DNA of 64,000 nt. Source: a virus. The stretch lies in the UHGV virus genome UHGV-0167633; one strand, given 5' to 3'. The position numbers and the translations under genes are program-made. The notes beneath the pieces were generated by a model. The model made no database searches. It was given only the letters and a program-made list of their open reading frames with translations, and had not been told where the DNA came from. This document shows, in pieces, positions 49,802 to 49,867 of this stretch (positions are counted from its first letter, which is position 1; each line of letters opens with the position of its first letter).

Positions 49802-49867
49802 ATTGCTCTAATAATTCCATATTTTTAAAACGTGATGTACACTCATCACGTTTTTTATTAGAGCAAT
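49802..49867. promoter_or_regulatory. 66-bp palindrome: two inverted C1-type operators flanking a terminator-like hairpin
   Basis: ATTGCTCTAATAATTCC (49802-49818), hairpin AAAACGTGATG-TACACT-CATCACGTTTT (49827-49854), inverted operator at 49851-49867. Confidence 0.5.

Follow-up and report, generated by a model that had tools for sequence, protein, structure and literature searches.

Operators of the P1 repressor C1 are asymmetric 17-bp sites with the consensus ATTGCTCTAATAAATTT, and 22 operators are catalogued (PMC8546580). The closest described counterparts of the element analysed here are the pairs OpmgRa/OpmgRb of phage P1 and Op(sht a)/Op(sht b) of P7, which match it exactly in sequence, in their position between pmgQ and pmgR, and in orientation. 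The P1 and P7 records differ from our reading in that the -10 hexamer is put at TAAAAC, not in the loop of a hairpin, and in that neither a hairpin nor a terminator is annotated at the pmgQ-pmgR junction. A further relative is Plpa/Olpa (former P94/Op94), from which the late-gene activator lpa is expressed under C1 control and where the last 3 bp of a 17-bp asymmetric operator overlap the -35 hexamer, followed by a 17-bp spacer and the -10 hexamer TATTAT. This operator-to--35 geometry equals that of the loop-promoter candidate described below, whose -35 starts from operator position 14-15, and Plpa is not flagged as "predicted" in GenBank; however, Plpa has a single operator, with no inverted downstream operator and no hairpin around the -10. 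The bivalent operators of P1 (for example Oc1ab = Op99ab) likewise place two inverted C1 sites on one promoter. In the window, i.e. the whole 64,000-nucleotide stretch of DNA under analysis, this type is seen at 35952-35979 as two overlapping inverted C1-operator cores, the 17-mers forming an incomplete palindrome, unlike the separated pair OpmgRa/OpmgRb, which lies 32 bp apart.

Two repressor sites flanking a promoter core, as at OpmgRa/OpmgRb, are also known from gal OE/OI and lac O1/O3. These systems employ dimeric or tetrameric repressors, symmetric sites 90-110 bp apart and DNA looping, whereas OpmgRa and OpmgRb are asymmetric and 49 bp apart from centre to centre. With intrinsic (Rho-independent) terminators the element shares a stem-loop with a G+C-containing core, an immediately adjoining U6 tract and compensatory changes. 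Unlike typical members of that class, it has a modest 7-bp core (-8.5 kcal/mol), its U-tract doubles as operator sequence and its loop as a -10-like hexamer.

The window represents a P1-like phage-plasmid: across positions 49300-50400, its identity is 99.7% with phage RCS47 and 98.8% with phage P1. The 66 bp at 49802-49867 correspond to 82152-82217 of the P1 record AF234172 with no sequence difference. In that record, 82152-82168 (plus strand) is annotated as the monovalent C1-controlled operator OpmgRa, former Op86a, controlling pmgR and pmgS, and 82201-82217 (minus strand) as OpmgRb, former Op86b; P7 (AF503408) carries the same pair under the names Op(sht a)/Op(sht b). By sequence identity, then, the element is the already catalogued P1 operator pair Op86a/Op86b, known since the P1 genome annotation. 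We take the name "former Op86" to imply earlier biochemical mapping, and presume C1 binding at Op86 from the GenBank note. The features of the region, with the evidence on which each is placed, are as follows.

49099-49800, plus strand: pmgQ (hdmD in P7), last gene of the pmgL-pmgQ operon (open reading frame; P1 and P7 annotation)
49802-49818, plus strand: C1 operator OpmgRa (former Op86a), ATTGCTCTAATAATTCC (P1 and P7 annotation)
49803-49831, plus strand: GenBank-predicted sigma-70 promoter PpmgR, -35 TTGCTC at 49803-49808 and -10 TAAAAC at 49826-49831 (P1 annotation)
49815-49843, plus strand: alternative promoter candidate, -35 TTCCAT at 49815-49820, 17-bp spacer, -10 TACACT at 49838-49843, i.e. 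the hairpin loop (positional conservation)
49827-49854, plus strand: hairpin, arms AAAACGTGATG at 49827-49837 and CATCACGTTTT at 49844-49854, loop 49838-49843 (folding, covariation, strand asymmetry)
49851-49856, plus strand: T6 tract, putative terminator U-tract and 3' end of the right operator (sequence, terminator scoring)
49851-49867, minus strand: C1 operator OpmgRb (former Op86b), ATTGCTCTAATAAAAAA (P1 and P7 annotation; kept in all lineages)
49872-49877, plus strand: Shine-Dalgarno-like AAGGTG, ending 4 nt 5' of the pmgR ATG (sequence)
49882-50100, plus strand: pmgR (open reading frame; P1 annotation)
50102-51364, plus strand: pmgS (shtB in P7), second gene of the operator-controlled operon (open reading frame; P1 annotation)
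51384-51412, plus strand: strong hairpin of terminator type with a T7 run after it, at the end of the pmgR-pmgS unit (hairpin scan)

The genes around the element all lie on the plus strand. The pmgQ stop codon (TAA) occupies 49798-49800, and the gap of 81 nt between pmgQ and pmgR is nearly filled by the operator/hairpin element. The downstream gene pmgR is an essential virion-assembly or head-completion gene of phage P1 (PMC9024508). A tblastn search with P1 C1 gave no match in the window, whose 64 kb cover part of a replicon estimated at about 95-115 kb; in P1, c1 lies beyond the window end. The hairpin at 51384-51412 (AATGCTGGTGG...CCACCAGCATT plus T7) stands directly 3' of the pmgS stop codon and is unannotated in P1; across it, expression in P1vir RNA-seq at 10 min declines from a logFC of 9.99 for pmgS to 8.45 for pap (PMC8201110 Table S1). 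Further downstream, 51943-51959 is the operator Op88/OpmgT, and a 10-bp G+C-rich hairpin at 51992-52014 immediately follows the predicted P1pmgT -10. It has a T-run on the minus strand only, and may form a stem-loop at an mRNA 5' end or terminate leftward transcription.

The two operators are clear-cut. The 13-nt core ATTGCTCTAATAA is found at 49802-49814 (plus strand) and 49855-49867 (minus strand), complementary at 13/13 positions with the arms 40 nt apart, and each of the 17-mers ATTGCTCTAATAATTCC and ATTGCTCTAATAAAAAA matches the consensus ATTGCTCTAATAAATTT at 14 of 17 positions, positions 1-13 being exact. The original prediction of two inverted copies of a 17-bp operator, made from the sequence alone, is hence borne out, and the copies coincide with annotated OpmgRa/OpmgRb. 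With up to 2 mismatches allowed, the 13-mer core has 14 matches in the window versus 2.0 expected, a number reached in none of 100 shuffles, and perfect inverted repeats of at least 13 nt with a gap of at most 60 nt were absent from all 20 shuffles. We infer C1 occupancy of both OpmgRa and OpmgRb. The operators are separated by 32 bp holding the promoter core and the hairpin, with a centre-to-centre distance of 49 bp. The right operator overlaps the stem by its final 4 bp, and the left operator is 8 bp from the stem. The element is not the 66-bp palindrome it was first taken for: concentric complementarity across the 66 bp amounts to 14 of 33 pairs, and the centre of the hairpin (49840.5) is offset 6 bp rightward from that of the operator pair (49834.5).

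Other inverted repeats occur elsewhere in the window. A perfect 15-bp palindrome, TTCAAGGTGAAATCG-tgg-CGATTTCACCTTGAA, is located at 25438-25470 and resembles the palindrome of ParB heptamer boxes in parS, the P1 centromere. A perfect 14-bp inverted repeat, GTTGAGAACACTGG / CCAGTGTTCTCAAC, lies at 37025-37038 and 37093-37106 with 54 nt between the arms.

The predicted hairpin with a perfect 11-bp stem and flanking A/T runs is present at 49827-49854, 27 nt past the pmgQ stop codon, with a 6-nt loop (TACACT), a T5 run on its 5' side and a T6 run on its 3' side. The fold is more stable than expected on both strands (z-scores of -5.6 for the plus and -5.0 for the minus strand), with RNA minimum free energies in the window of -12.9 and -12.4 kcal/mol, respectively. 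Its plus-strand core, CGUGAUG-UACACU-CAUCACG, comprises 7 bp at -8.5 kcal/mol, reaching -12.9 kcal/mol once the A-U extension is included, with U6 directly after it. The strands separate in a d'Aubenton-Carafa style terminator score, computed by an approximate formula, which in the window is +10.7 for the plus strand versus -20.7 for the minus strand, where the tail after the hairpin reads UUUUAAAAA. Among six lineages, the plus-strand score is above zero in five and the minus-strand score below zero in all (range -18 to -75). A generic terminator scan did not list the hairpin at 49827-49854, probably since it extended the stem into the A/T pairs, leaving too few T, and an Rfam search of 49500-50200 returned no RNA family at E <=1.

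The element is widespread: the phage records that contain it number 19 and the plasmid records 687, and among 5426 complete E. coli genomes it occurs in 672 (about 12%). A metagenome scan found copies almost exclusively in the P1 lineage, and a pattern scan of genome contigs found only 2 Escherichia contigs. We sampled 118 loci by the pmgR start and 55 by PmgS homology, so that neither sample was chosen on the operators. Of the 118 P1-lineage loci, 116 retain both 12-nt operator cores exactly, with polymorphism clustering just outside the operators, and the complete element of two operators and hairpin is found in 53 of the 55 PmgS-sampled loci, a few with single-base operator variants. In the two others, the metagenomic P1-lineage loci L200 (about 1180-1300) and L190, the element is missing upstream of pmgS; the L200 sequence in its place looks like the end of an IS26 copy, with GGCACTGTTGCAAA read from the opposite strand.

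Conservation extends to diverged lineages with 52-71% PmgS identity, namely Cronobacter phage JK004, Salmonella L004 and L135, and metagenomic L133, L128 and L130. All of these keep the order pmgQ stop, left operator, hairpin, inverted right operator and pmgR, with the span fixed at 66 bp. Conservation in relatives, the check proposed at the outset, thus came out positive, as every lineage examined with PmgS identity of at least 52% retains the hairpin and the two operators at the 66-bp span. In the Salmonella loci L135/L136 (1200-1265), both operators carry an identical substitution, TTGTTCTAATAA instead of TTGCTCTAATAA, which suggests a concerted change with altered repressor specificity. 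More distantly, L140 (PmgS 27% identity) has at 2697-2750 an inverted pair of another sequence, AAGATACTAATTTAT, perfect over 15 bp, around the -10 of TTTACA-17-GATATT, upstream of a pmgR-like gene. No hairpin lies between the inverted sites of L140, the hairpin being found only in lineages with PmgS identity of at least 52%. Two inverted repressor-type sites bracketing the -10 hence look like an old feature of the pmgR promoter.

The stem arms have diverged in sequence between lineages yet remain complementary, as follows.

P1: AAAACGTGATG / CATCACGTTTT
L004: AAAACATGGTG / CACCATGTTTT
L128: AAGGTGTGGTG / CGCCACATCTT
L135: GAAGCGTGGTG / CACCATGCTTT

In L133 the register of the stem is shifted by 3 nt. 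Across 20 distinct sequences, 94.5% of cells are paired and 5 of the 11 pairs are altered on both sides; neither this paired fraction nor the covariation score was reached in any of 500 shuffles, and slid controls were 33-67% paired. Pairing is strand-dependent, with 21 G·U cells on the plus strand versus 5 on the minus strand, and with 87.3% of cells paired in the reverse complement. Plus-strand RNA minimum free energies stay between -12.9 and -16.5 kcal/mol across lineages, and those of the minus strand weaken to -5.8 kcal/mol in JK004 and -7.1 kcal/mol in L128. Within the P1 lineage, stem variants present in more than one copy are all plus-strand wobbles and the minus-strand wobbles are singletons, an asymmetry derived from a small number of independent events (some 6 different plus-strand mutations versus 4 on the minus strand). 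As the conservation of the stem is strand-specific, the structure appears to be selected as a plus-strand single-stranded form, most simply an RNA transcribed from pmgQ.

Thus, the plus-strand hairpin is probably a rightward terminator, or a 3'-end stem-loop, of the pmgL-pmgQ operon. In the L128/L130 lineage the hairpin is kept, the U-tract is missing (CUUGAUUAG) and the terminator score is -25.6; termination may therefore not be the sole reason for which the hairpin is maintained, and a 3'-end-protecting stem-loop is the nearest alternative role.

Expression data place a promoter at the same junction. In P1vir RNA-seq at 10 min, logFC values are 7.05 for pmgQ, 9.02 for pmgR and 9.99 for pmgS in the wild type, and 6.23, 9.00 and 9.09 in a dksA host, with the pmgL-pmgQ block at about 5.4-8.0 (PMC8201110 Table S1). 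The step from pmgQ to pmgR/pmgS of +2.0 to +2.9 log units, roughly 4-8-fold, in two hosts argues for an early-active promoter at the pmgQ-pmgR junction. At 30 min the corresponding values are 11.66 (pmgQ), 10.81 (pmgR) and 11.70 (pmgS), a comparison that is confounded by the promoter at the junction and by gene length (PMC8201110 Table S1). As to other promoter types, an Lpa-dependent late promoter in the gap was considered and rejected, there being no counterpart of the -22 boxes of LPpmgL (TAGTCATTT), LPhot (AAGTTACTT) and LPpac (ATGTGACTT).

Where this promoter lies separates our reading from the alternative that survives best, i.e. the arrangement as annotated in GenBank, with the TTGCTC of the operator as -35, TAAAAC as -10, transcription beginning in the loop at about 49838, and a hairpin that is incidental or serves as terminator only. 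It is annotated in P1, TTGCTC-17-TAAAAC occurs in both the window and the Salmonella L004 lineage, and pmgR transcripts starting there would likewise escape the hairpin. However, the combination reaches no more than 5.2 bits, its -10 has no T at the key last position, the promoter is labelled "predicted" in the P1 record, and the -10 hexamer is not conserved, with TGAAGC in JK004, TGCGGC in L133 and TAAAGG in L128 in its place, where the arrangement is never among the top 5 candidates. We consider the annotated version unlikely.

The competing candidate, TTCCAT-17-TACACT with a predicted start at about 49850, places the -10 in the hairpin loop and ranks top on the plus strand in 8 of 8 lineages with a rough sigma-70 weight matrix. 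The loop hexamer, TACACT in P1, is TATCAT or TATTAT in the relatives, with T1, A2 and T6 invariant. The -35 begins at operator position 14-15 throughout, being TTCCAT in P1, TTTAAT/TTTTAA in L004 and L137 (both Salmonella), TTTACT in JK004, L133 and L135, and TTGATT in L128 and L130. Sigma-70 scores are not significant by themselves in A/T-rich DNA: the loop promoters of the relatives reach 10.2-11.8 bits against a shuffle 95th percentile of about 11.4-11.7, and that of P1 and the window reaches 6.4 bits, under the shuffle median best score of 8.0. Since the latter score is below the shuffle median, the support for the loop promoter is comparative. On this basis the -10 of GenBank PpmgR is probably misplaced, and the conserved TAnnnT in the hairpin loop is the more likely hexamer; the exact start site of pmgR transcripts remains a predicted position. 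Because both promoter models start in the loop or after the right arm, pmgR transcripts cannot form the hairpin.

Based on these comparisons, we propose that the Op86a/Op86b element is best explained as a compact module with three functions, repression, initiation and termination, a reading to which we assign a probability of roughly 60%. On the standard P1 model, the asymmetric operators would each bind one C1 molecule. The left site would overlap the -35 region and the right site would span roughly +1 to +18, jointly silencing the pmgR-pmgS promoter in the lysogen. Upon inactivation of C1, host sigma-70 RNA polymerase would initiate at the pmgR promoter early in lytic growth, with the -10 most probably located in the hairpin loop rather than at the annotated TAAAAC, as the comparative data indicate. 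In transcripts arriving from pmgL-pmgQ, the plus-strand RNA would fold into the 11-bp hairpin followed by U6, acting as an intrinsic terminator or as a 3'-end-protecting stem-loop, and the hairpin would thereby insulate pmgR-pmgS from the upstream unit, which is driven by a late promoter. The pmgR mRNA, devoid of the left arm, would escape termination.

Alternatively, the structure may act at the level of the DNA, with the inner repeat extruded as a cruciform or non-template hairpin and the -10 single-stranded in its loop, or with C1-C1 contacts clamping a micro-loop between the operators. The position of the -10-like hexamer exactly in the loop in all lineages, the operator span of 66 bp that is constant over 52-100% PmgS identity, and the A/T-rich flanks are compatible with this view. 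However, with concentric pairs at 14 of 33 there is no 66-bp palindrome, an 11-bp stem is short for extrusion, and, as each G·T on one strand is an A·C opposite, a two-strand cruciform would lose stability in most relatives. The suggested cruciform is thus not upheld, as the stems of the relatives tolerate plus-strand G·T that equals C·A opposite, and we regard a DNA-level structure as very improbable. A structure-dependent switch is conceivable, because the loop holds the -10 in every lineage and the stem covaries even without U-tract (L128/L130). Such a switch could consist of a non-template-strand hairpin or cruciform, clamped by a pair of inverted C1 molecules, through which the -10 is exposed or concealed, or of terminator formation by upstream transcription that modulates the embedded promoter, but we give it little credence.

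Hardly tenable is a bidirectional terminator hairpin with each operator controlling an outward-firing promoter. In its favour, the stem has no mismatch on either strand (-12.9 and -12.4 kcal/mol), A and T runs flank it left and right, and in non-P1 lineages the minus strand contains ATGATA-18-TAAAAT (10.2 bits), which resembles a promoter with the loop as -35. Against it, the minus strand has the tail UUUUAAAAA, negative terminator scores in 6/6 lineages and C·A mismatches in the stems of JK004, L128, L133 and L135, the best minus-strand promoter in the window (6.7 bits) stays below the shuffle median of 8.0 with GGAATT here for the TAAAAT of the relatives, and the neighbours are all on the plus strand, leaving nothing that requires leftward termination or initiation. 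Where present (L004, L003, i.e. JK004, and L133), ATGATA-18-TAAAAT would read antisense into pmgQ, and it is absent from the window. Of the termination and repressor-controlled initiation originally suggested for both directions, the rightward half of each is reasonable, supported by the plus-strand score of +10.7 and the stem covariation in the case of termination, and by the annotated C1 operators and the 10-min RNA-seq step in the case of initiation. The leftward halves are not supported, given the negative minus-strand scores in all six lineages, the best minus-strand promoter of 6.7 bits and the lack of a leftward gene nearby.

In conclusion, we return to the three-function module as the preferred reading of an operator pair that was already known. 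The refinements are modest and conceptually unsurprising, and are useful for annotation and for the engineering of P1-based vectors. One is the probable relocation of the -10 into the hairpin loop, with pmgR transcripts that would bypass their own terminator; another is an unannotated hairpin, conserved only on the plus strand, between the late unit pmgL-pmgQ and the early unit pmgR-pmgS; the third is the likely packing of a promoter, a terminator and two operators within 66 bp upstream of an essential head-completion gene. Their relevance extends from a model phage to the P1-like phage-plasmids, which about 12% of the complete E. coli genomes contain.
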